The notes under the pieces were generated by a model. It saw only the letters and a list, made by a program, of their open reading frames with translations, did no database searches and was not told the origin of the DNA. Shown piece after piece: positions 2,534 through 55,000 of a stretch of DNA of 64,000 nucleotides. Origin of the DNA: Kiritimatiellia bacterium (GTDB lineage: Bacteria; Verrucomicrobiota; Kiritimatiellia; JAAZAB01); assembly GCA_041653875.1 (NCBI GenBank), contig JBAZEM010000006.1, forward strand, positions 46,585-110,584. Direction: 5' to 3'. A program made the position numbers and the translations under genes. Positions within the stretch are counted from its first letter, which is position 1. Every line of letters begins with the position of its first letter.

Positions 2534-4276
2534 CTACTTCACCGGGATGCCATCCGAAGCGCCAAAGCCGCCCTCGAGAACGCTGTGGCTCCCCATCAGG
2601 AAGATGCTCCAATCACCGTTATGGAACACGGCCAGGTCGGATTTGCCGTCGCCATCATAGTCCCCTGAAAGCGGGATGCCACCCGGAGCGCCAAAGCCGC
2701 CCTCGAGAACGCTGCCACTGCCCACCAGGAAGATGTTCCAATACCCGTTGCGGAACACGGCCAGGTCGGACTTGCTGTCGCCATCATAATCGCCAGACAC
2801 CGGGATGCCATCCGGAGCGCCAAAGCCGCCCTCGAGAGCGCTGTGGCTACCCATCAGGAAGATGCTCCAATCACCGTTATGGAACACGGCCAGGTCGGAC
2901 TTGCCGTCACCGTCATAGTCGCCTGATACCGGGATGCCATTCGGAGCGCCAAAGCCGCCCTCGAGAATGCTGTGGCTACCCATCAGGAAGATGCTCCAAT
3001 CACCGTTATGGAACACGGCCAGATCGGATTTGCCGTCGCCATCATAGTCACCTGATACCGGGATGCCATTCGGAGCGCCAAAGCCGCCCTCGAGAACGCT
3101 GTGGCTACCCATCAGGAAGATGCTCCAATCACCGTTATGGAACACGGCCAGGTCGGACTTGCCGTCACCATCATAGTCGCCTGATACCGGGATGCTATTC
3201 GGAGCGCCAAAGCCGCCCTCGAGAACGCTGTGGCTACCCATCAGGAAGATGTTCCAATACCCGTTGCGGAACACGGCCAGATCGGATTTGCCGTCGCCGT
3301 CGTAATCATTAATGGGCTGTTTTTCCGCCTGGCTGGGGACAACGGTGAATATACCCTCGGACGAACTTACGTAGATCTTGCCGTCACGAATCCGGACCGT
3401 TTCCATCCGCTCGTCCGAACGGGCCAGCACCGCATATCCCGCGTAGTTGCCATTGGTCACAAACAGACGCTGCAACTCGCTCGCATCGGTGAACGACGTC
3501 GCGGTAATTACCAGGCGTCCCTTATTGTCCACCACCATGCCACTCGCGCCATCTCCCGCGGATAGCGTTGCCCACGCATGGCCGACCGGGCTCAGCGGGG
3601 CGCCCGCGGGATTGGCAATGGCAGCGGAAACTTCCGCGGCGCTCCAGCGGTAAACTGTCGGATTGCCCGAAGAGACGTAGCCTTCCGCGTAGAAGAGATT
3701 GCTGGACGCGTCGAAAGCGATTGGACCGCTTGCGGCGCCGATGGCGCCGAGATTCACCAGCGGGTTGCTCACCAAGTCACCATTCGCGTTCAGGGCGCTG
3801 TAATAGATCGCGGAGTTATATCCCCCCGCGGCCCAGAAATCGGTCCCGTCACGCGTCTCGAGCCCATATATGTCGCTCAGAATTCCTATGTTCGCCGGTG
3901 CGGACGGGTGGGTCGGATCATATCGGTAGTAGTCGCAGGTATAACGGGTGTATGTTCCGCCGTCGTTGAAGTAGATGCGGCCGCCGATTGCGGTCACCCG
4001 ACTGCCGGAGAACGCGTTCGCGTCCGTGTACAGGAGCGATGCATTGACGCCGTTGTAACGGTAAACGGAGATCCCTAAACCATAGTCCGGACGTCCGGTC
4101 GAGTAGTACAGGTTCGAATCTTCGTCCCAGTCGAACGCCACCAACGTCTCTCCCGCATGCGGATTCGCGTAGAACGTTTGCGCCACGTAATTGCTGCTTC
4201 CGATGAACGCAGCGAACGCATGTTCGCCAAGCGCCGCCAGGCACACGCCAATAAACAACCTCAACATTAATTTCAT
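2534..4276 (-). CDS. Secreted FG-GAP/VCBS-type repeat protein (about 7 tandem 42-aa repeats, DYDGDGKSDLAVF...)
   Basis: Signal peptide MKLMLRLFIGVCLAALGEHAFA follows an AAGGAG RBS. The C-terminal half consists of near-identical 42-aa FG-GAP-like repeats encoded by 126-bp DNA tandem repeats. Confidence 0.7.
   Translation of the reverse strand: MKLMLRLFIGVCLAALGEHAFAAFIGSSNYVAQTFYANPHAGETLVAFDWDEDSNLYYSTGRPDYGLGISVYRYNGVNASLLYTDANAFSGSRVTAIGGRIYFNDGGTYTRYTCDYYRYDPTHPSAPANIGILSDIYGLETRDGTDFWAAGGYNSAIYYSALNANGDLVSNPLVNLGAIGAASGPIAFDASSNLFYAEGYVSSGNPTVYRWSAAEVSAAIANPAGAPLSPVGHAWATLSAGDGASGMVVDNKGRLVITATSFTDASELQRLFVTNGNYAGYAVLARSDERMETVRIRDGKIYVSSSEGIFTVVPSQAEKQPINDYDGDGKSDLAVFRNGYWNIFLMGSHSVLEGGFGAPNSIPVSGDYDGDGKSDLAVFHNGDWSIFLMGSHSVLEGGFGAPNGIPVSGDYDGDGKSDLAVFHNGDWSIFLMGSHSILEGGFGAPNGIPVSGDYDGDGKSDLAVFHNGDWSIFLMGSHSALEGGFGAPDGIPVSGDYDGDSKSDLAVFRNGYWNIFLVGSGSVLEGGFGAPGGIPLSGDYDGDGKSDLAVFHNGDWSIFLMGSHSVLEGGFGASDGIPVK
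2545..3300. repeat. 126-bp tandem repeat x about 6-7 (coding; FG-GAP repeats)
   Basis: Recurrence of ccatccgaagcgccaaagccgccctcgagaacgctgtggct... every 126 bp with few substitutions. Confidence 0.8.
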
Positions 4277-6812: not shown

Positions 6813-7062
6813 TAAAAAAGCCTCCAGACTCCCGCCAAAAGAGTCTGAAGGCTTTGAATACAGCACGATCCCTCATTCTCCTTTCAAGCGAAGGAGCCAC
6901 AACGAGCATGAAAAGAAACGTCTCCTGACTTCCGGCTTCAAGCCTACTCCTTCACCTTCCCGTTTGCCTTGCGGCACCCGGTGGTCATTGAAGTTTCGTA
7001 GCCGGTCACAGTGGCGCGACCGTATCCGATTCTCACGGATTTCCGTACTCTCTTCACAAACA
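6813..7062 (-). ncRNA. Cobalamin (B12) riboswitch with intrinsic-terminator expression platform
   Basis: The minus strand reads ...GGAAATCCGTGAGAATCGGATACGGTCGCGCCACTGTGACCGGCTACGAAAC...GGGTGCC...AAACGGGAAGGTGAAGG...CAGGAGACG. This matches remembered RF00174 core blocks (GGUGAGAAUCC, GCC-CUGU-A, GGGAAGG). It is followed by the hairpin GCCTTCAGACTC..GAGTCTGGAGGC plus TTTTTT (6813-6853). A paralogous element lies at 19882-20150. Confidence 0.6.
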
Positions 7063-7379
7063 AACTTTTAATTCCAAAGAACTGACAAGACTAATAACAC
7101 AACCATGCAAGCTGTCAATAAGATTTATAAAGCAATTTTTCAAAAGCGTTGTCTATATTGCCGAGCCATGCTTGTTGACGATATTAAAAAAACACCTTGG
7201 CCAGCTTTAGAATACCCTGGCTCCAATACGCGCAGGGCCAGAATTACCGGGGTCGTTCCGGTAAAGACACGATCCGCTTGCCGTGGCCGGCTTCGTCAAG
7301 CACGGCCTGAAAATCCGAGCGCGGTGTTCCGAATTGCTCTGCGCCGACATTGAACGTGTCGTCCTGAATCCCTGGCGGG

Positions 7380-19881: not shown

Positions 19882-20150
19882 AAAAAAACCTCCGATACGC
19901 TCGTAGGCGGATATCGAAGGTTTGCGATTGCGGAACCTCATCCTCTCCACCTGCGAGAGAGCGAATCCGGCCTGGCCGGATTCCGATGAGCGTGCAAAGC
20001 AACGTCTTCTGACTTCCGGGTGCTATCCTACTTTCCCCGCCTTCTCCCAACCTGTGCTGGGATGGCTTATGGGATTTCGTCCCCGGTTACAGCGGCGCAA
20101 CCGCGTCCGATTTTCACGGACTTCCGTACGCCTTCCACGCTTGTAAAAAC
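19882..20150 (-). ncRNA. Cobalamin (B12) riboswitch controlling btuF-TBDR-btuCD
   Basis: The minus strand reads GTGAAAATCGGACGCGGTTGCGCCGCTGTAACCGGGGACGAAATCCC...GCCATCCCAGCACAGGTTGGGAGAAGGCGGGG...CAGAAGACG. This is homologous to the element at 6813-7062. It ends in a hairpin plus TTTTTTT abutting the btuF ATG. The context is the classic B12-importer regulon. Confidence 0.7.
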
Positions 20151-21427: not shown

Positions 21428-21592
21428 ATAAGCAAGAGGCGTTCTTTGTTCCTCGTTCTTGGTTCTTCGTCTTTTGGTCGGATTGAAAGCCATTTTTTAT
21501 TGAGCCGATAGCGGGACTGAAGTGCATGTGTTCGTAACGAAGAACGAAGAACGAAGAACCAAGAACAATTTAATTCGAACCAATAAATCCTT

Positions 21593-22207
21593 ATGAAAAC
21601 CCTGGCCTCACTGCTTATTAAAGGGCTGTCGGCGATTTTGCCGATCAGTGTCGTGCTGTTTTTTATTTTTTGGATCGGTTCCACCGCCGAGCATGCGCTG
21701 GGCGGGCTGCTGAAGGCGGTGTTGCCCGAACGCATCTACCTGCCGGGCATGGGCCTGTTGGCCGGATTGATTCTGGCGGTCGGGGTCGGGCTCCTGCTTA
21801 ATCTCTGGCTGTTCCAAAGGCTGGTGGACATGGTCGAAGGCTGGATGGCCCGCGTTCCGCTGGTGAAAACGGTGCTGGGCGGCATCAAGGACTTGATGGC
21901 CTTCCTGGCCAAGGGCAAGAAAATAAATTCCGGCAAAAAATATGTGGTCAAGGCGGACATGGGTAATGACATTCATTTGCTGGGAATTATGACCCGGCAG
22001 GATCTGAATGGGACGGGCTTGGAACCCATGGGCGCGGGGCACTGCGCCGTATATGTTCCAATCAGTTATCAGCTGGGCGGCTATACGATCTATTTGCCGC
22101 GTTCGCGGCTCACGCCGATTAATATGTCGGTCGAGGATGCGCTTCGGTTTGCCATGTCGGCGGGCATGTCCGGCGAGAAGAAAGTGAGCGATTTAGCGAT
22201 TCAGTGA
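21593..22207 (+). CDS. DUF502-family membrane protein
   Basis: N-terminal TM pair plus a conserved DUF502-like core (KxxxGxIKDL..). Confidence 0.6.
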   Translation: MKTLASLLIKGLSAILPISVVLFFIFWIGSTAEHALGGLLKAVLPERIYLPGMGLLAGLILAVGVGLLLNLWLFQRLVDMVEGWMARVPLVKTVLGGIKDLMAFLAKGKKINSGKKYVVKADMGNDIHLLGIMTRQDLNGTGLEPMGAGHCAVYVPISYQLGGYTIYLPRSRLTPINMSVEDALRFAMSAGMSGEKKVSDLAIQ

Positions 22208-22294
22208 ATTAATGATTTAGGAGAAATTGAGATGGTCTATTCTTCAATCGCTAAATCACTTAATCGCTGAATCTCTAAATTTCTTGAGGGTGTT

Positions 22295-22843
22295 ATGATT
22301 AAAATGGGTATTGGCTTCGATGCGCACCGGCTGGTCAAGGGGCGGCGGCTGATTCTGGGGGGTGTGCCTATTGAGCATGTCATGGGTCTGGCGGGACATT
22401 CCGATGCCGACGTGCTTTGCCACGCGCTGGCCGATGCCTTGTTGGGCGCCATTGCCGATGGCGATATCGGCGCGCATTTCCCGGATACCGATCCGCGCTG
22501 GAAAGACGCGGACAGCCTCGATCTGCTGGCGCAGGTGGCGGCGCGTTTGAAGGCCCGCCGGACGCGCATCGTGCATGTGGATGCCACTGTCATGGCCGAA
22601 GCGCCGAAATTGGCGCCCTATCGGCAAGCCATGCGCGAGCGGCTGGCATCCGTGCTGGAAGTGTCGGTGACGGACGTTTCGATCAAGGCCACAACCTTGG
22701 AAGGCATGGGCGCCTTGGGACGCCGGGAAGGCATTGCCGCCATGGCCGTCGCGACGGTGGAGGTGGCAAGACGGACGACAGATGGCAGACGACAGACGCC
22801 AGCCCGGAGAAGAGGGGGGGGACGGACGACAGACGACGGATAA
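22295..22843 (+). CDS. ispF: 2-C-methyl-D-erythritol 2,4-cyclodiphosphate synthase
   Basis: GIGFDAHRL...GHSDADVLCHALADALLGA motifs. The C-terminus is extended about 20 aa by read-through into a GACGACAGACGAC repeat. Confidence 0.85.
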   Translation: MIKMGIGFDAHRLVKGRRLILGGVPIEHVMGLAGHSDADVLCHALADALLGAIADGDIGAHFPDTDPRWKDADSLDLLAQVAARLKARRTRIVHVDATVMAEAPKLAPYRQAMRERLASVLEVSVTDVSIKATTLEGMGALGRREGIAAMAVATVEVARRTTDGRRQTPARRRGGGRTTDDG

Positions 22844-22925
22844 CTGACACCAGTCCTGAAAGGACGAAGGGCGGAAAAACGAAGAACTAAGAACTAAGAA
22901 CGAAGAACCAAGAACGCATTCCCCC

Positions 22926-24410
22926 ATGCCTTTGCACATTTACAATACCCTGACGCGATGCGTGGAAGAGTTCATTCCGCTTCAGGCCCCGCAGGTGCGG
23001 CTTTATACCTGCGGGCCGACGGTCTATGACTTTGCCCATATCGGCAATTTCCGCGCCTATGTGTTCGAGGACCTGCTCCGGCGCACTCTGCGCTTGCGGG
23101 GGTTTCAGGTGACTCAGGTCATGAACCTTACTGACGTGGATGACAAAACCATCCGTGGCGCGCAAGCGGCTAAGGCGGCCTTGCGCGATTATACGCAAAA
23201 GTACAAAGATGCATTTTTTGAGGACCTGCGCGTGTTGGCGGTCGAGCCGGCCGAGCACTATCCGGCCGCCACGGCGCATATCCCCGAAATGATTGCCTTG
23301 ATCGAGACCCTTTTCCAAAAGGGCTATGCCTATCGCTCCGAAGATGGATCCGTGTATTTCAGCATCGCCAAATTCAAGGATTACGGGAAACTCGCGCGCC
23401 TGGATCTTGCCGGCCTCAAGCCGGGCGCGCGTATTGCGCAGGACGAATATCAGAAGGAAAATGCGGCCGATTTTGCTCTGTGGAAAGCCTGGCAAAGCGA
23501 AGACGGCGATGTGGTTTGGGATTCGCCCTGGGGGCGCGGCCGGCCAGGTTGGCACATCGAGTGCTCGGCCATGAGCATGAAATACCTGGGGGCCGGTTTC
23601 GATCTGCACACCGGCGGCGTGGACAATATTTTCCCGCACCACGAGGACGAAATTGCCCAGAGCGAGGCCGCCACCGGCCGGCCTTTCGTCAAGTACTGGA
23701 TGCATTGCGCCCATCTGGTCGTGGATGGACGTAAGATGTCCAAGTCGCTGGGTAATTTTTTCACGCTTCGGGATATAATTGGGCGCGGCTACTCCGGACG
23801 TGAAATCCGCTACGCGCTCATGGCGGTCCATTACCGGCAGGCGCTCAATTTTACCTTTGAGGCGCTCGATGCCGCTCGCGGCGCCCTCGCCCGCCTGGAT
23901 GAGTTCGCGGAACGAATACGATCGCAAAGCGATCGGAAGTCAGAAGTCAGAAGTCAGAAGTCAGAAATCAGCAGTCAGCAGTCGGCAACTAATGCACAAG
24001 CTGATATCGAATCGGCAATCGGCAATCGGCAATCGGAAATCGGAAATTGGACTGCTCCTCACCTGGCGGCTTTCACGCGTGCCCTGGATGACGACCTCAA
24101 TATTTCGCTGGCCCTGGCCGCGCTCTTCGATTTTGTTCATGCCGGCAACAAGCGCTTGGCTGAAGGCGCCTTGAGTCCGGTGGAAGCCGTCCAGGCGCTT
24201 GACGCGCTGGCCCATATCGACTGTGTGCTGGGTGTGCGCGGCGCGGATACCTTGGCCCCGCCGGCGCACGTTGTGCGCCTGGCCCAGGCGCGACTGGAAG
24301 CCCGCCGAAGCAAAAATTGGGCCGAGGCCGACCGCCTGCGCTGTGAGGTCGAGACCCAAGGCTGGATCATTCAGGATGCGGTCGACGGGTTCAAGGTGAA
24401 GCGCAAATGA
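22926..24410 (+). CDS. cysS: Cysteine--tRNA ligase with in-frame low-complexity insertion
   Basis: HIGH motif (AHIGNFRAY), KMSKS (KMSKSLGN). An insertion of about 45 aa is encoded by (CAGAAGT)n and (AATCGGC)n microsatellites at 23930-24050. Confidence 0.85.
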   Translation: MPLHIYNTLTRCVEEFIPLQAPQVRLYTCGPTVYDFAHIGNFRAYVFEDLLRRTLRLRGFQVTQVMNLTDVDDKTIRGAQAAKAALRDYTQKYKDAFFEDLRVLAVEPAEHYPAATAHIPEMIALIETLFQKGYAYRSEDGSVYFSIAKFKDYGKLARLDLAGLKPGARIAQDEYQKENAADFALWKAWQSEDGDVVWDSPWGRGRPGWHIECSAMSMKYLGAGFDLHTGGVDNIFPHHEDEIAQSEAATGRPFVKYWMHCAHLVVDGRKMSKSLGNFFTLRDIIGRGYSGREIRYALMAVHYRQALNFTFEALDAARGALARLDEFAERIRSQSDRKSEVRSQKSEISSQQSATNAQADIESAIGNRQSEIGNWTAPHLAAFTRALDDDLNISLALAALFDFVHAGNKRLAEGALSPVEAVQALDALAHIDCVLGVRGADTLAPPAHVVRLAQARLEARRSKNWAEADRLRCEVETQGWIIQDAVDGFKVKRK

Positions 24411-25054: not shown

Positions 25055-26084
25055 ACTCGAGCAGGTTTTGGCGTCGCTGCGGCAAAGCATAGCCTCCGGC
25101 CGCCTGGCGCACGCGTATCTGATCGTGGGGGCGCCCCGCGGCGCCGCCGGGGTTCTGGCCGAACGGGTGGTGGAACTGCTCTATTGTACGGCGCCGGGCG
25201 AGCGCCCTTGCGGAGGGTGCGCCAAGTGCCGGCGAATCGCCGCGCATGCCCATCCCGATGTATTGTGGGTGGAACCGCAAAAAAAATCGCGCGGTATTTT
25301 GACGGAGCAAATCGAGGCGGTCCAGGAGCATGTCAATCTGACTTCCTTCGAGGGCGGTTGGAAGGTCGTGGTGTTTATCAATGCCGACCGGCTCAATCCG
25401 CAGGCCGCGAACCGGTTGCTCAAAACGCTTGAGGAGCCGCCGGCCAAATGCCTCTTTTTGCTGGTCACCGATCAGCCCTCGAGGCTCCTGCCAACCGTTG
25501 TTTCGCGATGCCAGCGCGTGACGCTGGCGGCGGGAGATGATGCGTTCGGCGCGGAGTCCAAGGCCATGGTTGTGGATGCGCTGACCGGCATCGAGGAGCG
25601 GAGTGTTGCGGCGGCCGTGGCCCGCTCAAGGCGCGTACTGGCCTTTTTAAAAACGGAGCGCGACAAGATCGCCGAGGCAATCAAGGCCGAGAGCGCGGCG
25701 GACTCCAATCGCGGCGAGCCGGACGCGGAGAAAGTTTCTAAAGACGCGCGGGAGGCCCGGATCGAGGCCCGGTACCGGGAGGTGCGCGCCGAATTGTTGC
25801 GGTGGCTGTTATTGTGGCAGCGCGACGTTTTGCTCCAGGTCTCCGGCGCGGGCGGCCTGATTGAACCGGTGTTTACCGAGAGCAAGGAGCTGATCCGGCG
25901 CTGGGCCGTTGCATTGACTTATCGCCGCGCGTTGGATAACATCCGTACAATTGAAGACATGCGATGGCAGTTGGATCAGTATTTGCCCGAGACCATGGTG
26001 CTGGAACGCGGGTTTATCCGCCTGCTGGCGGCAGGGGCGCCTGCTGGCGGACGCCGGACGACAGACGACAGAATGAACGAGTAA
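25038..26084 (+). CDS. holB: DNA polymerase III delta-prime subunit
   Basis: AAA+ clamp-loader motifs (HAYLIVGAPRG, CxxCxxC zinc module). Classic tmk-holB-PSP1 order. Confidence 0.75.
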   Translation: MSSESELEQVLASLRQSIASGRLAHAYLIVGAPRGAAGVLAERVVELLYCTAPGERPCGGCAKCRRIAAHAHPDVLWVEPQKKSRGILTEQIEAVQEHVNLTSFEGGWKVVVFINADRLNPQAANRLLKTLEEPPAKCLFLLVTDQPSRLLPTVVSRCQRVTLAAGDDAFGAESKAMVVDALTGIEERSVAAAVARSRRVLAFLKTERDKIAEAIKAESAADSNRGEPDAEKVSKDAREARIEARYREVRAELLRWLLLWQRDVLLQVSGAGGLIEPVFTESKELIRRWAVALTYRRALDNIRTIEDMRWQLDQYLPETMVLERGFIRLLAAGAPAGGRRTTDDRMNE

Positions 26085-26130
26085 CGAAGAACGAAGAACT
26101 AAGAACTCGGAACCCCCTGAACACTTAAAC

Positions 26131-26958: not shown

Positions 26959-27407
26959 TAAAGATTCTTGTTTTGAATGGGCCGAACCTGGGTGCGTTGG
27001 GCAAGCGTGAGCCGGCGCTTTATGGCAAGGAGACGCTGGATGATATTATCCGGGGGCTCCGGGATATCTCCGAGACCCTCGGTGTCGAACTGGAACATGT
27101 GCAGAGCAACGAGGAGGGCGCGCTGGTTTCGCAGATTCTGGCCAGCCGGGAAAAGTTCGACGGGATCATTCTGAACCCGGCCGCCTATACGCATACCAGT
27201 TTAGCCTTGCGGGATGCTCTGCAGGCCGTTGCCGTGCCATGCGTGGAAGTGCATCTTACCAATACGGCGGCCCGCGAGGAGTTCCGGCATGTCAGCCTGA
27301 CGGCCGGCGCCTGCCTTGGTCAGATCATGGGATTCGGGGCTTTTGGATATCATTTGGCCCTGACAGGATTGGTTCAATATCTCAAGTCCGGCCGGAGACC
27401 GGGGTAA
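26955..27407 (+). CDS. aroQ: 3-dehydroquinate dehydratase, type II
   Basis: ILVLNGPNLGALGKREPALYG N-terminus characteristic of type II DHQase. Confidence 0.85.
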   Translation: MIKILVLNGPNLGALGKREPALYGKETLDDIIRGLRDISETLGVELEHVQSNEEGALVSQILASREKFDGIILNPAAYTHTSLALRDALQAVAVPCVEVHLTNTAAREEFRHVSLTAGACLGQIMGFGAFGYHLALTGLVQYLKSGRRPG

Positions 27408-27425
27408 CATAATGACGAGGTGACC

Positions 27426-27878
27426 ATGCAACTGGATAAAGTCAAGGAAATCGTTGACCTGATGACCGCCAACGGGCTGGCAGAGTTTGAAATGGAAGAA
27501 AACGGCATGCGTCTGTCCATTAAAAAGGGCGGGGCTGCGCAGATTGTGCAGACGGTGGCCGCTCTGGCGGCGCCCGCGCCCAAGGCCGAGACATTCGCGG
27601 TGCCCGCGCCGGCGGCGCCTGTGGCGGACGATCCGCGCATGGCGTTCGTCAAGGCGCCGTTTGTGGGCACCTTGTACCGCGCGCCGGCGCCGGATGCCGA
27701 GCCGTACGTGACGGTTGGTCAGGAGGTGACGCCGGAGACGGTCTTGTGCATTGTCGAAGCCATGAAGGTCATGAACGAAATCAAGGCCGAAGTCAAGGGC
27801 ATCGTCCGTGAAGTGTTGGTGGAGAACGCCCATGCCGTGCAGTACGGCCAGCCGTTGTTTAAAATCGAAAAAACATAA
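27426..27878 (+). CDS. accB: Biotin carboxyl carrier protein of acetyl-CoA carboxylase
   Basis: Biotinyl-lysine motif EAMKVMNEI. Ala/Pro linker. Confidence 0.85.
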   Translation: MQLDKVKEIVDLMTANGLAEFEMEENGMRLSIKKGGAAQIVQTVAALAAPAPKAETFAVPAPAAPVADDPRMAFVKAPFVGTLYRAPAPDAEPYVTVGQEVTPETVLCIVEAMKVMNEIKAEVKGIVREVLVENAHAVQYGQPLFKIEKT

Positions 27879-30325: not shown

Positions 30326-30889
30326 ATGAATCTATTGCATGGTCTGATTAAGAGTGTGCTTTCGGTGGGACTGCTGATCCTGGGCGTTTTGTTGCTGACC
30401 AATCTCGTTGTCGCCTTTCAGACGCCCTTGGGGGTGTTCCTGATCAACGACAAGCTGGGGCAGTTCCTGGTGGGGATTTCCGCCGTTTTCCTCGTGCTCC
30501 TGTACTGGCTGACGGGCGTTCCGATTAAGGACGAGCAGTTCCTCACGTTCGAAAACGAGGGCGGGGCGGTCAGCATCAGCGTGAAGGCGATCGACGATTT
30601 TCTCGCCAAGCTGGCGGACGAATTCGCGGGTATCATCCGGCTGCGCGCCGATGTGGCCGCCTCGCGCGATGGACGCGTCGAGGTGCGCCTGGACGTGAGC
30701 GTCAGGGCCGGCACCAAGGTCCAACAGTTGTCGCAGGTTCTTCAGCAACGGGTTCGGGAAAGCATGCGCGACAATCTCGGCATTGCCGAAATTCATTCCG
30801 TCAAGGTGAACGTGAGCTCCATTGTCGCCGCCGAGAAACCGGCCGCCGGCCATGCCGCCGACCGCGCCGACTGGCAGTCTGACGCCTGA
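30326..30889 (+). CDS. Alkaline shock response membrane anchor protein AmaP-like
   Basis: N-terminal TM helices plus a DUF322-like C-terminus. Paired with the Asp23 gene. Confidence 0.6.
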   Translation: MNLLHGLIKSVLSVGLLILGVLLLTNLVVAFQTPLGVFLINDKLGQFLVGISAVFLVLLYWLTGVPIKDEQFLTFENEGGAVSISVKAIDDFLAKLADEFAGIIRLRADVAASRDGRVEVRLDVSVRAGTKVQQLSQVLQQRVRESMRDNLGIAEIHSVKVNVSSIVAAEKPAAGHAADRADWQSDA

Positions 30890-30992
30890 CGCCTGACGAC
30901 GGACGACGGACGACGGACGACGGACGACGGACGACGGACGACGGACGACGGACGACGGACGACGGACGACGGACGACGGACGACGGACGACA
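30890..30992. repeat. Heptamer tandem array (GACGACG)n, about 13 copies
   Basis: ctgacgcctgacgcctgacgacggacgacggacgacgg... directly after the amaP stop. Related GACGACAGACGAC motifs occur at 22770-22850, 26040-26075, 30140-30190 and 34810-34860. Confidence 0.85.
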
Positions 30993-32470: not shown

Positions 32471-32577
32471 CCAAATTGGCGCGCGCCTGTCATTTTATTA
32501 ATGCAATCGCCGCGGGTTTGATTATAGTATGGCTCATTTCCAATGAATCGCAGCAACGCGGGCGACGAGAAATTGCC

Positions 32578-35190
32578 ATGAAAGAAAAATATCCGTTCGA
32601 TGAAATCGAGCCGAAGTGGCAGGCCTATTGGCGTGAGCGTGGCTTGTTCAAGGCGGACCTGGACAAGGCCGCTAAAAAATATTATTGCCTGATGATGTTC
32701 CCTTATCCCTCGGCGGCCTTGCACGTTGGGCATGGGCGCAATTACATCATCGGCGACGCCGTGGCGCGTTACAAGAAAATGCGCGGATTCAACGTGTTGA
32801 CGCCGATGGGCTGGGATGCCTTCGGCCTGCCGGCCGAGAACGCCGCCATCAAAACCGGGACCCATCCCCGGATCACGACCCTGGCCAATATCGCCACCAT
32901 GAAGCGGCAGTTGAACGCCTGGGGCTGTTGTTACGACTGGGACCGCGAGGTGACCGCCTGCCTGCCGGACTATTACCGCTGGACGCAATGGCTGTTCCTG
33001 CAGTTTTTCAAGCGCGGCCTGGCCTATAAGGCGTTTGCGCCGGTCAACTGGTGTCCATCCTGCGTGGCCGTGCTGGCCAACGAGCAGGTGATCGACGGCA
33101 AATGCTGGCGGTGCGATTCGCCGGTGCAGGAGAAACGCCTCGAACAGTGGTTTTTCAGGATCACCGACTATGCCCAGCGCCTCTTGGACGATCTGGACAA
33201 GCTGGCCGGCTGGCCGGAACGGGTCAAGTTGATGCAAAAGAACTGGATCGGACGCAGTGAAGGCGCGCGGATCGAGTTCCCGTTGGCGCCGCGCCGCGAC
33301 GGCGGGAAGGATTCCATCTCCGCCGTGGCCTGTTTCACCACGCGGGTGGACACGATCTTCGGTTGCACCTATATGGTGCTGGCCCCGGAATATCCGGAGT
33401 TGCCGGAACTGGTGAAGGGGTTGCCGGAAGAAGCGGCGGTCGCGCAGTTCGCCGCCCAGGCCGTCAAGGTTGCCGCCGTTGACCGCGCCGGCAACACCCT
33501 CGATAAAAACGGCGTGTTCACGGGGCGGTTCGTGGTCAATCCCTATACCGGCGAGAAAATTCCGTTGTGGGTCGGCGATTACGTCATTATGAGTTACGGC
33601 GCCGGCGCCGTGATGGCCGTGCCGGCGCACGACACGCGCGATTGGGCCTTCGCCAAAAAATACGGTTTACCCATCAAGCTTTCCATCCAGAACGCGGAGC
33701 GGACGCTTGTCATTCCCGATCCAATCGGGAATCCAGTTTCAGAAAGCTCGGATCTGGATTCCCGCTTTCGCGGGAATGACACCGCGGGTAAACCGAAATT
33801 CATGACGGATGCTTACGTCGAGGACGGCGTCACGGCAAATTCCGGCCAATTCAGCGGGTTGCCAAGCGGCCAGGCGCGGGCGCGGATGACGGCTTATGCC
33901 GAGGGGCAAAAGTTTGGGGGCGCTTGCGTGACCTACCGCCTGCGCGACTGGCTGATCAGCCGCCAGCGTTATTGGGGCGCGCCGATCCCGGTCGTTTATT
34001 GCAAGACCTGCGGCATTGTGGCGGTGCCGGAAAAGGATTTGCCTGTGCTCCTGCCGGACACCGTGGAGTTCAAGCCCACGGGCGAATCGCCGCTGAAGCG
34101 CGACGCGAACTTCATGAACACGACCTGCCCGAAGTGCGGCGCGAGCGCCCAGCGCGAAAGCGACACCATGGATACGTTCGTCGATTCGAGCTGGTATTAT
34201 CTGCGCTATCTTTCCGCGCGCGACGACCGGCAGGCCATCCGGACCGAGGTGTGCAACCGGTGGCTGCCGGTGGACCAGTATATCGGCGGCATCGAGCACG
34301 CCATCCTGCATCTCATGTACGCGCGGTTTTTCACCAAGGCGCTCTTCGACATGGGTCTGGTGGGCTTCGACGAGCCCTTCGCGAACCTGTTCACGCAGGG
34401 CATGATCTGCAAGCGCAGCGAAAAGGACGGCCAGCTTTACAAGATGTCCAAGTCCAAGGGCAATGTGGTGAGCCCGGACGAACTGATCCGCGAATACGGC
34501 GCCGACACTGTGCGGCTCTATACGCTCTTTATCGGGCCGCCGGAAAAGGATGCCGAGTGGAACGACCAGGGCATCGAGGGCGCCTTCCGGTTTCTCAAGC
34601 GCCTCTGGCGCTTCGTATATGAGCGGCATGACGTTCTGCAAAAGGCCGCAACCTTCGCGCCGGAATTGGCGTCCATGAGCGTTCCGGAGCGCGATCTCTA
34701 TCGCAAGGCCCATGAAACCATCCGGGTCGTTACCGGCGGACTGGATGGCGCCTTCCATTTCAATACGGCCATTGCCCAGATCATGGAGCTGATGAACGAG
34801 GTGGAGCGTTTCTGCCCTCAGTCGTCTGTCGTCTGTCCTCCGTCGTCTGTCCTCCGCCACGCCGTTGAAACGATCGTTCTCCTGCTTTCGCCCCTGGCCC
34901 CGCATATTGCCGAGGAGTTATGGGTGGAGTTGGGGCATGCGCCCGGCGTCTTGCAGGCCGCCTGGCCCGAGGCCGATCCCGCCGCACTGGCGCGCGACTG
35001 CGTGGAAATCGCGCTCCAACTCAACGGCAAGTTTCGCGGCACGATGATGGCGCCGGCCGGGGCCGACCGTAAAAGCCTGGAGGACACGGCGCTGGAGCAG
35101 CCGCAGATTGCCAAGGCGGTCAAGCGCGAGCAGGTGGTCAAGATGGTGGTGGTCCCGGACAAGCTGGTCAATATTGTGTTTAAGGCATGA
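32578..35190 (+). CDS. leuS: Leucine--tRNA ligase
   Basis: Class I aaRS with HVGH and KMSKS motifs, CP1 editing domain, zinc knuckle CxxC. An in-frame hairpin-rich insertion lies at 33711-33800. Confidence 0.9.
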
Positions 35191-39563: not shown

Positions 39564-39663
39564 AAGGATCTCCGATCTATTAAGTATGGGAGTATGGGAG
39601 TATCGGAGTAAAGCATTGGCTCTGCACTCCTATACGCCGTTACACTCATACGCCGTTACGCCC

Positions 39664-41292
39664 TTACTTTTTCCTGTAAATCTTCAGCGTTGTGCCGGCC
39701 TGCCCAAAAGAGGGCACGTTGGTCATGGGCGTATAGCGGTCTGTCACAATCTCGGTGAACAAAGCCATGTCTTCCTCCGTCAGGGGTGTCACTTCCGGAG
39801 ATTGGATGGCCAGCGCATAACCGCTCAGGGCGGCTATGGGCGCCTCCGTTGTCCGGAGCAGGCGCTCGAAGCCGGCGCGATTGAACACGTGCAATTTGGC
39901 GGCCTGATCGTCGCTGAGGGCTGGGAAATAACTGAACTGCCCCATTTCCAGGCCGCGCGGAACTTGCCGGTTGGCTTCCACGGCTATGTAAGGGTCTTGT
40001 GTCAGCAACAAATCGACCGGTTGGGTTTCCTGCCGGATCAGGGCGGCAGTATCGCGCAGTTTCTGGAGCGGCGAACGGTCCTTGATCAGCCACCAGATGC
40101 GGTCGCGTCCCTGGATGAACCAGTCCTGGTTTAGCGGCGAAGATCCCGCGGCGCCCAGTGATGCGATCAGTATGGCGAGCGTCAACCACAAGGCGCCGCG
40201 CCGGCCGACAAGTCGAATAGCCGCATTGGCGATGGCGACGGCCAGGAGCGGGAAAACGAACACCTGATAATCGTCGTACGGGAATGGCGCCAGGAAATGA
40301 ATCAGTGTAATGGCGGCGATGCTCAACCATAGGATTCGCATCAAAACAGGTGTGATCGTCGCCGTTGGAGCGGCCATCGCCGTTGGAGCGGCCATCGCCG
40401 CTGGAGCGGCCATCGCCGCTGGTGTGGCCATTGTCGCAGGGGCGCGGGCTTGAGCCCATTTGGCGAAGACAATAAAGATGCCGACAATGAATGCGACAAA
40501 ATAAGCCTGAAGCAGGCGCGATAAAAAGCCGATCTTAAAAGCAAGCGTCATCAGGCCGTCGCCGGAATGACGCAGGGCATGATATTGCATAATGCAATAC
40601 AGGAAGGATTCCGGCGCCAGGATCAGGAACGGCAGAAAAACCAGTCCGGCCATGGTCGCTGCGCCCAGCCCGAAATAGAGCCAGGCCAGGGATGGCGCGC
40701 TTCGGCGGGACGCCAGCAGGCATAGACAAACGATCGGCAGGATGACGCCGGCGGAGACGCGTGTGCCGGCGGCCAGCGCCATGAACGCGCCGGCTATAAG
40801 CATCAGTCCTGCGCGGCGGCGCGTCCAGCCCCCGGCCAGCGCCAGGAATCCCAGCATTAAGAGCAGGGCCGTGAGCGAATAGGTTTTAACGACTGTGCAG
40901 AAATAACTTTGATAAACATTGACGACGATGAGAATGAACGTGGTGAGCGCCGCGCCGGCGCGCAATTCCGGATTTACCAGTCGGGCCGCCAGCCGGGCGG
41001 CCAGAACGGCGGCCACGAGGCCCAGCAGGGCGGTTATCAGCCGGCCGCCGGCCAGCCCTCCCACGGCGATGACCGGCGCGAACAGGGCATACACCAGCGG
41101 CATCACCGGTCCCTGGGTGAAGGCGAAATCGATGTACGGCCATTGGCCTGCGGCAACCAGCCGGGCGGCGTACAGGTACCAGCCTTCATCCTGATTCAAA
41201 TCGCCCAGGTACAGGTTGGCGGCCGAAAGGACGATGGCGATCAGGAAAGCTACAATGCTTGTGCCGATATAAGCGCGTTTATACGATGTCAT
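39664..41292 (-). CDS. Polytopic membrane protein, GT-C-type glycosyltransferase-like (ArnT/PMT/DUF2029-like), with in-frame (MAAPAA)n repeat
   Basis: More than 10 TM helices. 21-bp tandem repeat at 40370-40450. Confidence 0.5.
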   Translation of the reverse strand: MTSYKRAYIGTSIVAFLIAIVLSAANLYLGDLNQDEGWYLYAARLVAAGQWPYIDFAFTQGPVMPLVYALFAPVIAVGGLAGGRLITALLGLVAAVLAARLAARLVNPELRAGAALTTFILIVVNVYQSYFCTVVKTYSLTALLLMLGFLALAGGWTRRRAGLMLIAGAFMALAAGTRVSAGVILPIVCLCLLASRRSAPSLAWLYFGLGAATMAGLVFLPFLILAPESFLYCIMQYHALRHSGDGLMTLAFKIGFLSRLLQAYFVAFIVGIFIVFAKWAQARAPATMATPAAMAAPAAMAAPTAMAAPTATITPVLMRILWLSIAAITLIHFLAPFPYDDYQVFVFPLLAVAIANAAIRLVGRRGALWLTLAILIASLGAAGSSPLNQDWFIQGRDRIWWLIKDRSPLQKLRDTAALIRQETQPVDLLLTQDPYIAVEANRQVPRGLEMGQFSYFPALSDDQAAKLHVFNRAGFERLLRTTEAPIAALSGYALAIQSPEVTPLTEEDMALFTEIVTDRYTPMTNVPSFGQAGTTLKIYRKK

Positions 41293-42659: not shown

Positions 42660-42772
42660 GGCAAAAGTCTCCTCTTTGCAAAAGTATGGGAGTATGGGCG
42701 TATGGGGGTGAGGGTGTCCCGCATAAATTTTTCACGCCCCTACACCCATACTCCTACACACCCATACGCTTC

Positions 42773-44056
42773 CTACATCTCCGCCAGTATGGTTTTAAAA
42801 CGCTCGCCGTCCTTGGCGGTTGTTCCCGGCGAGAGCCAGGCCATGCTGACCGTGCGCTCGCGGAAAATGGTGTCCGCCAGTTTTTGGATGTCCTCGGCCT
42901 GCACGGCCTGGATTGCCGCGATGGCCTCTTCGGGCGCCATGACCGAGCCGTAATTCAGGATGTGATCGCCCATCCACATCATATGGCCCGTCGGGTTTTC
43001 CAATCCCAGGCGCATGTGGCCGATGACGTATTCCTTGGCGCGCGCCAGTTCCTGCGGGTTGACTGTCTCCTGTTTCAGGCGCTTGACTTCGCGCGCGATC
43101 AGCTCCAGCGCCTTTTCATGGCGTTTGCGATCCAGGCCGGCGCCGATTACCAGGGCGCCGGTTTCGGCGAACAATTGCATGCCGGAATGAATGGCATACG
43201 CCAGTCCATGTTTTTCGCGCACGACCTGAAAGAGGCGCGAACTCATGTTTTCGCCCAGGATCACGTTCAGCAGTTTCAGCGCGTAGCGCCGCTTGTCGAA
43301 CCGTCCGAATATTCGGAAGCCCAGCGCCATCTGGGTCTGCTCGATGTCCTTGGCTCTCAGGTTGAGGCGCTCCTGGGGCACCGCCGGTGTGACCAGCGGG
43401 TAGGTGGGCTCGCGCGCGCCCGCGATTCCGCGGGTCAGTTTGGCCACATGGCGGACACACTCCTCGTGGCGCACGTGGCCGGCGAAAATAAAAACGGTGT
43501 TTTCCGGCACGTACTTCTTTTTTTTGAACGTCAGAATATGGTCGCGCGTCAGTTCGCGCAGAGTTTCGGGATAGCCGATCAGCGGGCGTCCGAGTTCGTG
43601 GTCCTGCCATAAGGCCGCGCTGAGCATTTCCTGCACCACCTGTTCCGGCTGGTCGCGGTACATCATGATTTCCTCGATGATGACGCCGCGTTCCTTCTCG
43701 ATATCCGCGGGCGCGAAGCGCGGATGGCGGTACATTTCCGTCAGAATGTCCAGCGCTTTCCAGGTGTGGTCATCGCCGGTGCGCGCGTAGTAGCAGGTCA
43801 GCTCCTCCTGGGTGAATGCGTTGCAGAATCCGCCGCGGCCCTCGATGGCCTGCGAAATGTCGCGCGCCGACAGGCGCTCGCTGCCCTTGAACAACAGGTG
43901 TTCGATGAAGTGACTGATGCCCGCCAAGGCGCGTGTTTCGTAGCGCGCGCCGACGCCCACCCAGACGCCGAGCGCCACGCTCTGCAAGTGTTCCATGGCG
44001 GAGGTCGCCACGCGCATGCCGTTGGCCAGGCGCGATTCGTGAATTGCCATCATCAT
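42773..44056 (-). CDS. M16 family zinc peptidase (pitrilysin-like)
   Basis: Inverted zinc motif HFIEHLLF...E. Confidence 0.8.
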   Translation of the reverse strand: MMMAIHESRLANGMRVATSAMEHLQSVALGVWVGVGARYETRALAGISHFIEHLLFKGSERLSARDISQAIEGRGGFCNAFTQEELTCYYARTGDDHTWKALDILTEMYRHPRFAPADIEKERGVIIEEIMMYRDQPEQVVQEMLSAALWQDHELGRPLIGYPETLRELTRDHILTFKKKKYVPENTVFIFAGHVRHEECVRHVAKLTRGIAGAREPTYPLVTPAVPQERLNLRAKDIEQTQMALGFRIFGRFDKRRYALKLLNVILGENMSSRLFQVVREKHGLAYAIHSGMQLFAETGALVIGAGLDRKRHEKALELIAREVKRLKQETVNPQELARAKEYVIGHMRLGLENPTGHMMWMGDHILNYGSVMAPEEAIAAIQAVQAEDIQKLADTIFRERTVSMAWLSPGTTAKDGERFKTILAEM

Positions 44057-44902: not shown

Positions 44903-44919
44903 ATATAAAACGTTCTTGG

Positions 44920-45030
44920 TTCCTGGTTCTTAGTTCTTTGTTTAGCGGGCAAATTCTTTGGGTTGCGGGCATCGCCCGCCTTAGATTAACGAAGAACCAA
45001 GAACCAAGAACGAAGAACCAAGAACAGTTT
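44920..45030. repeat. Long hairpin with (GAACNAA)n arms flanking a GGGTTGCGGGC..GCCCGCCTTA core
   Basis: Arms gttcttggttcctggttcttagttctttg / cgaagaaccaagaaccaagaacgaagaaccaagaac. A similar structure lies at 21440-21590. The motif recurs at 22870-22920 and 26080-26110. Confidence 0.7.
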
Positions 45031-52014: not shown

Positions 52015-55000
52015 ATGAGTAGGCTGATCGTCAGGATGTTATACTCAACGGTTCATCGTTGGAACTGTGCCATGCGCGTCACCTTGCATTTTTCACTCGC
52101 ATTCACTTGGCGGCATTGCGTTGTCCTTGTCTGTATTATGGCCGTTGTGGCGGTTGTCGCCAAGGCCGATACGCACTATGTGTCCCTCGCGGGAACGTCA
52201 GCCTCCCCTTATACGAACTGGGCGGAGGCGGCTAATTCGATCCAGGCGGCCGTGAACGTTGCCGGCGACGGGGACGAAGTTGTGGTGGCTGACGGGGACT
52301 ACATCCTTTCCGAACAAATCGTCATCGCCAAGGGAATCACGGTCCGGAGCGATCTCGGGCGTTCGATGTGTCGGATTGACGGCGACAATGTGTGCCGATG
52401 TATTTGGCTTGCCCACAGTAACGCCGTAGTCAGCGGGTTTACCATTACGCGGGGCTTGGCCGGCCAAGGGGGCCAATCTGACGGCGGTGGGGGGATTTAT
52501 GTTGACCGGGCCGGCACGGTGCGCGACTGCAGCATTGCCGATAATATTTGCTCCAATATCTACGGCGTAATGTGTGGCGGAGGAATATATCTTTCGGGTG
52601 GAGGGACAATCCAAAATTGCCTTGTGTCAGGCAATATAGCCGACAGTAGCGTAGCATCCGAGGGCGGCGGCATTTACATGTCTGGCGGTCTTGTCGAAAA
52701 TTGCCTTGTTATCGGCAATATTAATCGGCCGACAGGTTCGGGATGGGGCGGCGGCATTTATCTTGAAACGGGCATCGCGAATCATTGCACGATCGTGAAT
52801 AACAGCGGCGTATATTCGGGTGGCGGCGTATATCTGAAGTCCGGCGTCGTCGTCAATTCCATCGTTCTTTACAACCAGGCGACAGGATATCAGGAGTGTC
52901 GTATAGTTGGCGGCGGGTCGGTTTCATTCACCTGTTGCACCTGGTATGATGGAATGTCATACGATGCCGGCAATGTGTATAATAAAGACCCGCTTTTTGT
53001 CGATTATACGAACGGCGACTTCCATCTGCAGGAGGGCTCCCCATGCATCGATGCTGGGGCGACAACGGATGTTGTGACGGTGGACTACGAGTATGCGACC
53101 CGTCCTTTGGACGGCAATGTGGACGGGAATTTTCGCGTGGATATGGGCGCATTCGAATACCGTGTGACAGACCTGCGTTGCAGTGTGGCGGTGAACACCA
53201 ACCAGGGCTTCGATCCATTGCCGGTGCGATGCGAGTGCTTTACGGGCGGGACAAATCTCGATGGCCTGTATTACCGGTGGGACTTCGATAACGACGGCCA
53301 TATCGATCTTGCCGGCCCGGATTTGGCGGTGGTGACGAATACCTACACCAATTGGGGCTGGAAGACGATCACGGTGATGGTGAGCAATGTGGCGGGAGAA
53401 GCAGCGTCAGCGGCATTGACGAATGCTGTCAAGGTCGGTCATCCGTTGGTCTATGTCTCCCCCTCCGGCTCGAGTGTGTTTCCTTATACGAACTGGACGA
53501 TGGCCGCAACGAACCTGAATTCGATTGACGATCTGTTGGTGGATGGAACTGAGGTTGTCGTAACGAACGGCCATTATGACCTTTCTCAGGAATTTTCCCT
53601 GAATTTTGCCGTCACTTTAAGGAGCGTGAACGGCTGGAGGCAAACGACCTTGGATGGCAACGATATAACCCGTTGCGTTCGGCTTGCGCACTCTGGCGCC
53701 GTGGTTGACGGATTTACGCTGACCCGCGGTTCCGCTTTAAGTGGCGGCGGCGCCTATCTCAACGGCGGTACGGTGCGGAACTGCTGGATTCACGGCAATC
53801 GCGCTCGCAACGGTGGAATTTCCGGCGGCGGCGGCGTCTGTATGTACGGCGGAAGATTGGCAAACTCTTTGATTACCGGCAACAGTGCGGCCTCAAGTCC
53901 GGTCAACGAAGCCAATACGCGCGGCGGCGGCGTTTGGCTGAATAATGGCGGCATTGTCGAGTTCTGCACTATTATGGCTAATTCCATTTCATCCGGGCGA
54001 GGAGGTGGCGGGTTGTACGGAGGCGGTTCAGCATCCTCCGGGGGCACCCTCTACAATTGCATAATCTGGGGAAACACGGCGCCGACCGGCGCGAACATCG
54101 GTCAATGGAATAACTGCATCGGCGCTTATTACACGTGTTCGACTCTGACAGGTTATATGGCGAGCATGGAGGGGAATATCACAAACAATCCGTGCCTGAG
54201 CGCCGACTGGCATCTTCTGGCCGGGTCGCCGTGCATCAATGCGGGAACGAACCTTTCCACTGCGCCTATGGACATGGAAGGGATATCGAGGGACCTGGCC
54301 GGAAATCCGGACATGGGTTCCTTTGAATACAACGGAACGACCTATCCGCCAATGATTACGGATCATCCTCTGTCGCAGGCCAAAAACCCGGGGTCAACGG
54401 CAACCTTCAGTGTGGCGGTGGTGGGGATCGCGCCGCTGTATTACCAATGGCAGAAAAACGGCGTGAACATTGCATCGGCGAACAGCACGAACTATATGAT
54501 CAATCCGGTAATGGACTGGAGTGCGGGGGGATACCGTTGTCTGGTAAGCAACGCGGCAGGTGTTGTGGAGAGCGCGGTGGCGGTGCTGAACGTGAACGCG
54601 CCGGTGGCGATCGCGACTCAGCCGCAATCGCGCGCGAACAATCCGGGTTCGTCGGCGAGCTTCACTGTGGCGGCGACGGGGACCGCGCCGCTGTGTTACC
54701 AGTGGCAGAAAAACGGCGCGAACATTGAATTGGCGAGCAATACGATCTACATGATCGATTCGGTGGCGGCTGGTGACGCGGGGGCGTACCTTTGCCTGGT
54801 AAGCAACGTAGTCGGGGTGGTGGCAAGCGCGGTGGCGGTGCTGAGCGTAAACGCGCCGGTGGCGATCGCGACTCAGCCGCAATCGCGCGCGAACAATCCG
54901 GGTTCGTCGGCAACCTTCACTGTGGCGGCGACGGGGACCGCGCCGCTGTATTACCAGTGGCAGAAAAACGGCACGAACATCGAATCGGCAAGCAATACGA

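Follow-up and report, generated by a model that had tools for sequence, protein, structure and literature searches.

How can a tandem repeat whose unit is not a multiple of three nucleotides persist in the middle of a gene on which the cell presumably depends? This question is raised by cysS, the cysteinyl-tRNA synthetase (CysRS) gene of a Kiritimatiellia bacterium, which lies in a 64-kb stretch of contig JBAZEM010000006.1 (assembly GCA_041653875.1, positions 46,585 to 110,584 of the forward strand). This whole stretch is referred to here as the window, and all positions are given in its own numbering unless otherwise stated. Two arrays of tandem heptamers run in frame through the coding sequence of cysS. 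CysRS is generally an essential housekeeping enzyme and, by analogy, cysS is presumably essential in this organism as well, while non-triplet microsatellites are as a rule eliminated from the interior of essential genes. The explanation that we favour, and which we consider likely, is that the insert represents a lineage-specific hypervariable linker of CysRS, built and remodelled by replication slippage of heptanucleotide repeats. Its clade-wide persistence would then provide an example of a genome-wide repeat expansion that enters coding sequence at a permissive site.

Two heptanucleotide arrays in the coding sequence of cysS

The product of the open reading frame (ORF) at 22926-24410 can be assigned to CysRS, a class I synthetase, on several sequence grounds. 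Pfam recognises tRNA-synt_1e over residues 17-317 (E=1e-111) and, further on, DALR_2 (382-437), the sequence matches in PDB comprise 8QHP, 3TQO and 1LI5, and the translation carries both class I signature motifs, HIGH in the form HIGN (residues 38-41) and KMSKS (residues 270-274). In addition, C29, C213, H238 and E242 are invariant in an alignment of 80 sequences. By way of the region aligned with 1LI5, they would be equivalent to C28, C209, H234 and E238 of Escherichia coli, the zinc- and cysteine-binding residues of that enzyme. The top protein matches of the window CysRS come from Kiritimatiellia/Kiritimatiellota metagenome bins, at no more than 88% identity. The gene and the elements of its insert are the following:

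22926..24410, plus strand: cysS, cysteinyl-tRNA synthetase, 494 aa (ORF list, Pfam, PDB sequence matches, AlphaFold2 fold)
23916..24050, plus strand: low-complexity linker peptide, residues 331-375 (AlphaFold2 predicted local distance difference test (pLDDT), segment lengths, orthologue alignment)
23934..23989, plus strand: array 1, made of CGGAAGT, CAGAAGT x3, CAGAAAT, CAGCAGT x2 and CGGCAAC, encoding RKSEVRSQKSEISSQQSA (Tandem Repeats Finder, direct reading)
23990..24009, plus strand: non-repeat spacer of 20 nt (TAATGCACAAGCTGATATCG), open in two of the three reading frames
24010..24051, plus strand: array 2, made of AATCGGC x3, AATCGGA x2 and AATTGGA, encoding ESAIGNRQSEIGNW (Tandem Repeats Finder, direct reading)

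Tandem Repeats Finder (TRF) reports array 1 at 23936-23983 (period 7, 6.9 copies, 92% matches, score 75, unit GAAGTCA, i.e., CAGAAGT in rotation) and array 2 at 24010-24047 (period 7, 5.4 copies, 96% matches, score 62, unit AATCGGC). Both arrays are interrupted, the longest perfect runs being of four units in array 1 and of three units in array 2. They begin at codon 337 of 494, ~70% into the ORF, and encode residues ~337-375, between the catalytic and stem-contact (SC)-fold part of the protein and its helical-bundle and anticodon-binding part. TRF, the ORF and Pfam agree here with a preliminary description of the locus, which had located in-frame heptamer arrays after the catalytic core of cysS and before its anticodon-binding region, and which quoted the peptide correctly (RKSEVRSQKSEISSQQS...AIGNRQSEIGN).

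Read in the coding orientation, these units contain no stops, and their heptapeptides (QKSEVRS, NRQSAIG) are hydrophilic. The codon of Trp375, a residue that is nearly invariant (at least 90% of 80 sequences), lies inside the last, degenerate unit of array 2, and no ATG follows this array in the window cysS. The spacer reads SRQLMHKLISN in its alternative frame. Three-unit probes allowing up to three mismatches gave five overlapping matches for array 1 and three for array 2, against shuffle expectations of 0.00 and 0.01, respectively (100 shuffles); all of them fall at the cysS arrays, and no further copies of the units were detected elsewhere in the 64-kb window. At the RNA level, the sequence across the arrays is no more structured than its shuffles (z = +0.14), and an Rfam search of the window found no RNA family at any array. 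A hairpin pairing array 1 with array 2 was rejected on this fold score and because the units are not complementary. Programmed ribosomal frameshifting was also rejected, given the single in-frame ORF and the same lack of structure beyond shuffles.

The insert as a linker at a domain junction

The linker (residues 331-375) sits after the last helix of the SC fold and before the helical-bundle domain, and HMMER alignments to the CysRS of E. coli and Coxiella end at query residue 324 to resume at residue 376. An AlphaFold2 model of the window CysRS, built on 80 homologues, reaches a pLDDT of 86.8 and a predicted template modelling score (pTM) of 0.81 overall, and superposes on the CysRS structures 1U0B (tRNA complex; TM score of 0.84 by target length) and 8QHP (0.90). 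The pLDDT drops from 79 to 42 over residues 331-370, with residues 351-371 below 50, and a helix spanning residues 311-351 extends into the first array-encoded segment with declining confidence. The structural modelling that had been proposed as a check on the locus returns a confident CysRS fold with a low-confidence insert, the latter being modelled as a disordered linker.

The segment between the NFTF and DDDLN motifs (NFTF..DDDLN) counts 85 aa in the window, against a mode of 56-57 aa in ~97 related CysRS, so that the net insertion amounts to ~28 aa and not to 45. The earlier estimate of about 45 added residues thus holds for the extent of the low-complexity stretch, but not for the length that the protein has gained.

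The linker site in related genomes

The cysS locus was taken from 17 related assemblies that span the linker site and whose CysRS are 72-88% identical to that of the window. Heptamer-derived sequence is present at the same cysS site in all 17 relatives. By lineage, the units of array 1 are CAGAAGT, CAGAGGT, CAGCGGT, CAGAGAT or CAGCAGT, and those of array 2 are CAGAAAT, CGGAAAT, CGAAAAT, CAAAAAT, CAGCAAT or CGGCAAT. The units are single substitutions apart between lineages and homogenised inside each lineage, as is characteristic of units that are continually gained and lost. In the sublineage of L084 and L086, other units occupy the site (ACATTCG x4 plus AATNNNG-type).

The length of the segment varies in steps of 7 aa, i.e., 21 nt or three units, with series of 71, 78, 85, 92 and 99 aa, of 65, 79 and 100 aa, and of 91 and 98 aa. 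In total length (273 nt), the window equals L082, its nearest relative, with the units apportioned differently between flank and array. The insert is old within the clade and hence not a recent strain-specific event. The preliminary description had regarded an insertion shared by the orthologues without repeats as evidence against its proposal; what the orthologues share is the insertion together with the repeats.

In CysRS of 60-68% identity, the segment either has 56-57 aa or carries unrelated in-frame insertions at the same junction, and the junction is therefore a generally permissive site. It is probably a solvent-exposed loop between the SC-fold helix and the helical-bundle domain that is insertion-tolerant across the group, and the heptamer insert is probably tolerated because it is located at this permissive domain junction. 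On these comparisons, CysRS tolerates insertions where its SC fold meets the helical bundle, and this junction collects whichever repeat class is active in each lineage. Several of the unrelated insertions are GC-rich GTAG...CTAC palindromes of the REP type, with very stable predicted hairpins, which lie in frame at the CysRS junction of the more distant Kiritimatiellia L014, L089, L090/L091, L094 and L100, where the site is thus taken up by another repeat class.

Reading frame and frame breaks within the arrays

Since seven leaves a remainder of one when divided by three, three units equal seven codons, and all phases of the unit are translated. Simulated one-unit changes in either array truncate the protein at 350-420 aa with loss of its anticodon-binding half, as anticipated by the earlier remark that only some copy numbers keep the frame. 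As a second frame of the spacer is also free of stops, simulated paired changes in the two arrays (-1/+1, +2/-2, -1/-2, +2/+1) restore the cysS frame.

Among the 17 relatives, cysS is in frame in 15 and out of frame within the arrays in two (L008 and L162). In L008 (JBDRSI010000087, 87% identical), three TCGGAAA units are found where four are needed for the frame, an exact one-unit difference, and the downstream piece is annotated by NCBI as a separate "DALR domain-containing protein" (P0121). In L162 (ERZ27293393 k141_1142332), a 2-nt deletion inside a unit of array 1 (CAGAAGT CAAGT CAGAAGT) separates called genes of 368 aa and 129 aa. Both loci encode an N-terminal product of 368-385 aa and a separate DALR-domain product of 123-129 aa, the second starting at a conserved W-M ATG directly after the arrays. 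No cysS frame break outside the arrays was detected by tblastn in any of the 17 loci, and both breaks fall within ~140 of the 1480 nt of cysS (Fisher p = 0.009). The C-terminal pieces of L008 and L162 are undecayed, with 84-85% identity to the window versus 71-83% in intact relatives.

Several other contigs are disrupted at arrays of this type. At a (CAGAAAT)n array, the contig of L095 passes from cysS into a murC-like gene; in L163, a PIN toxin gene is joined to the cysS C-terminus at an (AATCGAA)n array; and in L161, a palindromic artefact ends the contig just past the array. The chimeric contigs show that cysS-type arrays adjoin other genes in the genomes of those relatives. In this clade, heptamer arrays are an assembly and annotation hazard, as illustrated by split "DALR domain" genes and chimeric contigs.

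The stand-alone C-terminal CysRS pieces of L163 (P0124), L161 (P0018) and L095 were rejected as splits, being chimeric joins or contig ends at arrays. Two further candidates for array splits were also rejected: L164 (P0127), a long-read contig in which a single-base frameshift lies elsewhere, and L165, which is a contig end. The contigs of L028, L142 and L149 end at cysS codon ~310, at the edge of a conserved HYRQxLNFTF block, and no link between these ends and the arrays emerged. As for the quality of the assemblies, a break of L008 in the homologue of the ORF at 27201-27833 was dropped as a measure of it, because this ORF looks spurious. In L001 (3150-3440; metagenome-assembled genome JBDRJR010000110), the DUF502 gene upstream of ispF lacks ~100 internal codons and its frame is changed. 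This gene may be either a pseudogene or the product of a misassembly, the quality of this genome being imperfect.

Heptamer arrays in the window and in the lineage

The cysS pair is not the only set of heptamer repeats in this DNA. In the 64-kb window, TRF finds ~20 arrays of period 7 (and a few of period 8), and a strict detector returns six period-7 arrays versus none for periods 5, 6 and 8-13, period 7 being the only strongly enriched short tandem period. Array positions were judged against a simple self-made ORF map, which covers only these 64 kb of the genome; on this map, nearly all arrays other than the cysS pair and a weak array in leuS are intergenic or located at gene 3' ends. The recurring units are NAAGAAC, GACGACR and the octamer AGTATGGG. 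The period-7 excess is present in the window, in L008 and in L001-L003 (CysRS at least 82% identical). Apart from L026, the single distant locus with such arrays, no period-7 arrays were found in 30 other loci that include L004-L007 (72-82% CysRS identity), distant Kiritimatiellia and outgroups. Except for L026, the excess is restricted to the lineage.

One of these arrays, in the intergenic position that is usual for the class, lies in the leader of cysS itself:

22874..22916, plus strand: NAAGAAC array of the cysS leader, with its end 10 nt ahead of the ATG (TRF, 6.1 copies, 86% matches)

Its position upstream of cysS is kept in 13 of the 18 relatives compared, with a motif resembling GCATTTCCCC between array and ATG, and CAGTGAT-type arrays replace NAAGAAC at this place in four relatives (L002, L006, L008 and L084). 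In the window, the NAAGAAC arrays at 21536-21566, 22874-22916, 26075-26106 and 44912-44942 (minus strand) end 5-30 nt before predicted starts at 21593, 22926 (cysS), 26131 and 44902 (minus strand), respectively, and no obvious Shine-Dalgarno sequence is seen at these starts.

Proposed slippage under frame selection and its alternatives

The explanation that we favour interconnects these observations as follows. The same slippage process would have filled the intergenic DNA of the clade with heptamer arrays and spilled into cysS, where only units that are stop-free in the coding orientation could persist. One-unit slips would destroy the frame and remove the anticodon-binding half of the enzyme, and selection would therefore pass only net three-unit changes or compensating slips in the two arrays. 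The cysS linker would in this way illustrate how frame selection restricts length changes to 21-nt steps. Replication slippage as the underlying mechanism would be in line with what is proposed for heptamer simple sequence repeats (SSRs) by Mrazek et al. 2007 (as given in PMC4679880 and PMC4692102). On this scheme, the linker peptide would lack a function of its own and out-of-frame cysS alleles would be deleterious. The earlier characterisation of the site as slippage-prone is supported over evolutionary time by the whole-unit differences, the homogenisation within lineages, the 7-aa length series and the confinement of frame breaks to the arrays.

Some observations weigh against this explanation. 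The signs of slippage come from comparisons between species, the closest relative that spans the site being 88% identical. The insert is kept clade-wide and the array ahead of the cysS start keeps its position, which leaves room for a function. L008 and L162 come from short-read (MEGAHIT-type) metagenome contigs and assemblies mis-join at arrays, so that both breaks may be artefacts. Finally, the break in L162 is a 2-nt deletion within a unit and not a whole-unit slip.

The first of the alternatives makes use of that room. The insert might be a functional element, acting either as a protein tether that spaces the anticodon-binding half or as a set of RNA sites for the factor that may recognise the start-proximal arrays. 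The occurrence of the insert throughout the clade, even in relatives of only 72% identity, would fit such a role, as would the fact that array 2 ends in an in-frame ATG in several relatives. The same can be said of the positional conservation of intergenic arrays right before starts without an obvious Shine-Dalgarno sequence, which recalls the TAACTGA repeats proposed as regulator sites (PMC4679880). However, neither the sequence of the insert nor its unit type (ACATTCG in L084 and L086) or length (65-100 aa) is conserved, and many related CysRS have no insert at all. Besides, the cysS units are unlike the leader units of the window and are matched by nothing else in the 64 kb, the linker is modelled as disordered, and the window lacks an ATG after the array. 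We consider a functional element unlikely on this balance.

Still less probable, in our estimation, is that the catalytic and the helical-bundle/anticodon halves can be made separately and assemble, in which case frameshifts would be tolerated and the arrays would pose no lethal hazard. In detail, a one-unit slip would split cysS and the second half would be re-initiated at the ATG that follows array 2 in many relatives, a course of events to which we likewise give little credence. We are equally sceptical of the corollary that the insert is an intergenic-type module, i.e., a heptamer array plus a start codon, embedded in frame. If true, such a toggling between fused and split forms would explain how a non-triplet microsatellite survives in an essential gene, as well as the split genes of L008 and L162, whose separate products begin (for the second one) at the W-M ATG and whose C-terminal pieces have not decayed. 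There are also precedents for class I synthetases that work as two pieces, such as the alpha and beta chains of Aquifex LeuRS, and MetRS and IleRS were reportedly split artificially in the Schimmel laboratory. On the other hand, only two cases are available, both of them from MEGAHIT-type metagenome contigs in a setting where assemblies are unreliable at arrays, the window has no restart codon after its arrays, and the 15 relatives that keep the frame argue that the fused form is selected.

It has also been suggested, in the preliminary description, that the site might be phase-variable. In this case cysS would be a contingency locus, at which unit slippage makes the cell alternate between a complete and a truncated CysRS, as a form of regulated bet hedging. 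The unit length, which is not a multiple of three, its location within the ORF, the truncation caused by simulated single-unit changes and the two out-of-frame assemblies would be compatible with it. Nevertheless, CysRS is a single-function housekeeping enzyme, and we know of no advantage of a CysRS OFF state. Moreover, both tracts are short and broken up, no perfect run exceeding four units, they lie ~70% into the ORF instead of early in it, and nearly all relatives (15 of 17) are in frame. By comparison, the heptamer tract of Haemophilus influenzae hmw1, which is phase-variable, has ~10-16 or more copies and is located in the 5'-UTR (PMC12721329), and tuned phase-variable SSRs are enriched near N-termini, whereas SSRs are suppressed in mid-gene positions (PMC3315296). 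The suggestion of phase variation is not supported by this evidence, and we regard it as very improbable. Last and least credible is an assembly artefact in which the window arrays were collapsed, expanded or chimeric, as might be feared from related contigs that break or mis-join at arrays (L095, L161, L163), since the window cysS is in frame, its segment has the same length as that of L082 and nearly the same unit order, and each array (40-55 nt) is below read length.

Relation to known repeat systems

Heptamer arrays of this kind have their closest counterparts among the long SSRs (LSSRs) of bacteria. According to PMC4679880 and PMC4692102, which summarise Mrazek, Guo & Shah 2007, heptanucleotide units represent the most abundant class of long SSRs in many bacteria, are mostly intergenic and have been attributed to polymerase slippage. 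They include the GGGAATC repeats of Xanthomonas, the GGGGA(T/C)T repeats of Nostoc and heptanucleotides that stand in tandem in Calothrix PCC 7601. The arrays of the window resemble LSSRs in being tandem 7-nt units that occur at many loci, are restricted to a lineage and lie mostly in intergenic DNA. Further likenesses are that some inverted pairs can form stem-loops, that slippage is proposed as the origin, and that, at a given position, even close relatives differ widely in length and sequence. The cysS arrays qualify as LSSRs, consisting of head-to-tail 7-nt units beyond chance, within a period-7 excess that is mainly intergenic, and with variation among relatives. Two differences stand out: a housekeeping synthetase has a pair of arrays translated in its interior, at a site conserved through a clade, while non-triplet units are reported to be rare inside genes, and several unrelated unit families coexist in this genome.

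A second point of comparison is provided by the TAACTGA repeats of marine Beggiatoaceae, cyanobacteria and some Bacteroidetes, which occur in two to six copies just before starts that lack a Shine-Dalgarno sequence (MacGregor 2015, PMC4679880). A minority of them are read through in ORFs as heptapeptide repeats (LSVISYQ), and the author concluded that TAACTGA is inserted with success mostly in peripheral parts of protein structures (PMC4679880). The NAAGAAC arrays of the window likewise sit shortly upstream of predicted start codons without an obvious Shine-Dalgarno sequence. The units differ, however, being CAGAAGT, AATCGGC, NAAGAAC, GACGACR and others in the window. Moreover, every frame of the forward TAACTGA unit has a stop, in contrast to the stop-free units of cysS, and the cysS arrays occupy the interior of the protein (residues 337-375 of 494), at a domain junction and neither at a terminus nor near a start.

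The cysS arrays share with phase-variable SSR loci, such as the tetranucleotide tracts of Haemophilus and Neisseria or the ATCTTTC tract of hmw1 (PMC12721329), a unit indivisible by three whose slippage alters the frame or expression. They depart from these loci, which concern surface or restriction-modification genes, in their housekeeping target, in their short and imperfect tracts, in their late position within the ORF and in the conservation of the frame. As in the insertions and splits known from class I synthetases, among them the two-chain Aquifex LeuRS (PDB 3O0A), the junction between the catalytic body and the anticodon module accepts an insertion and sometimes a chain break. Unlike those insertions, which are made of ordinary peptide, the cysS insert is visibly composed of microsatellite units and changes length in 21-nt steps. 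A literature search combining Kiritimatiellia with heptamers returned no paper, nor is there any such report for Kiritimatiellota in the searched literature. The present data flag an undescribed heptamer-repeat-rich Kiritimatiellia lineage with arrays just before predicted start codons.

Further arrays and features of the window

Inverted pairs of tandem 7- or 8-mer arrays are present in intergenic DNA at 21430-21575, 22180-22290, 39575-39670, 42675-42775 and 44905-45030. They fold into long hairpins (z of -2.9 to -7.5, up to -53 kcal/mol), and it is possible that they serve as terminators or processing sites. A perfect (GACGACG)x13.9 array at 30879-30991 is flanked by convergent genes and shares sequence with the 3' end of an Asp23-like ORF. 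It also reads as GGACGAC units with many GGA motifs, and a role as a CsrA-type sponge would be pure speculation.

Heptamer-derived sequence is translated at a few other places. GACGACR arrays are read as C-terminal tails at the 3' end of ispF (22770-22830) and at that of a holB-like gene (26057-26072). The IspF tail (RRTTDGRRQT...RTTDDG) lies beyond the end of the YgbB domain (residue 155) and is absent in L002 and L008, and the tail of the DNA polymerase III delta'-like protein reads RRTTDDRMNE. A second synthetase gene of the window, leuS (32476-35190), also contains heptamer-derived coding sequence, in the form of a weak GTCGTCT array at 34811-34858. This array is located in a loop of the anticodon-binding domain of LeuRS and adds only ~4 aa relative to the LeuRS of T. 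thermophilus.

Apart from the heptamers, two cobalamin riboswitches (RF00174; 69 and 67 bits) are found at 19982-20149 and 6898-7083, both on the minus strand and upstream of minus-strand genes. Long tandem repeats occupy large ORFs at 2541-3298 (129 nt x5.9, 90%) and 54398-55325 (255 nt x3.6, 81%); their periods are multiples of three, and they presumably represent protein domain repeats.

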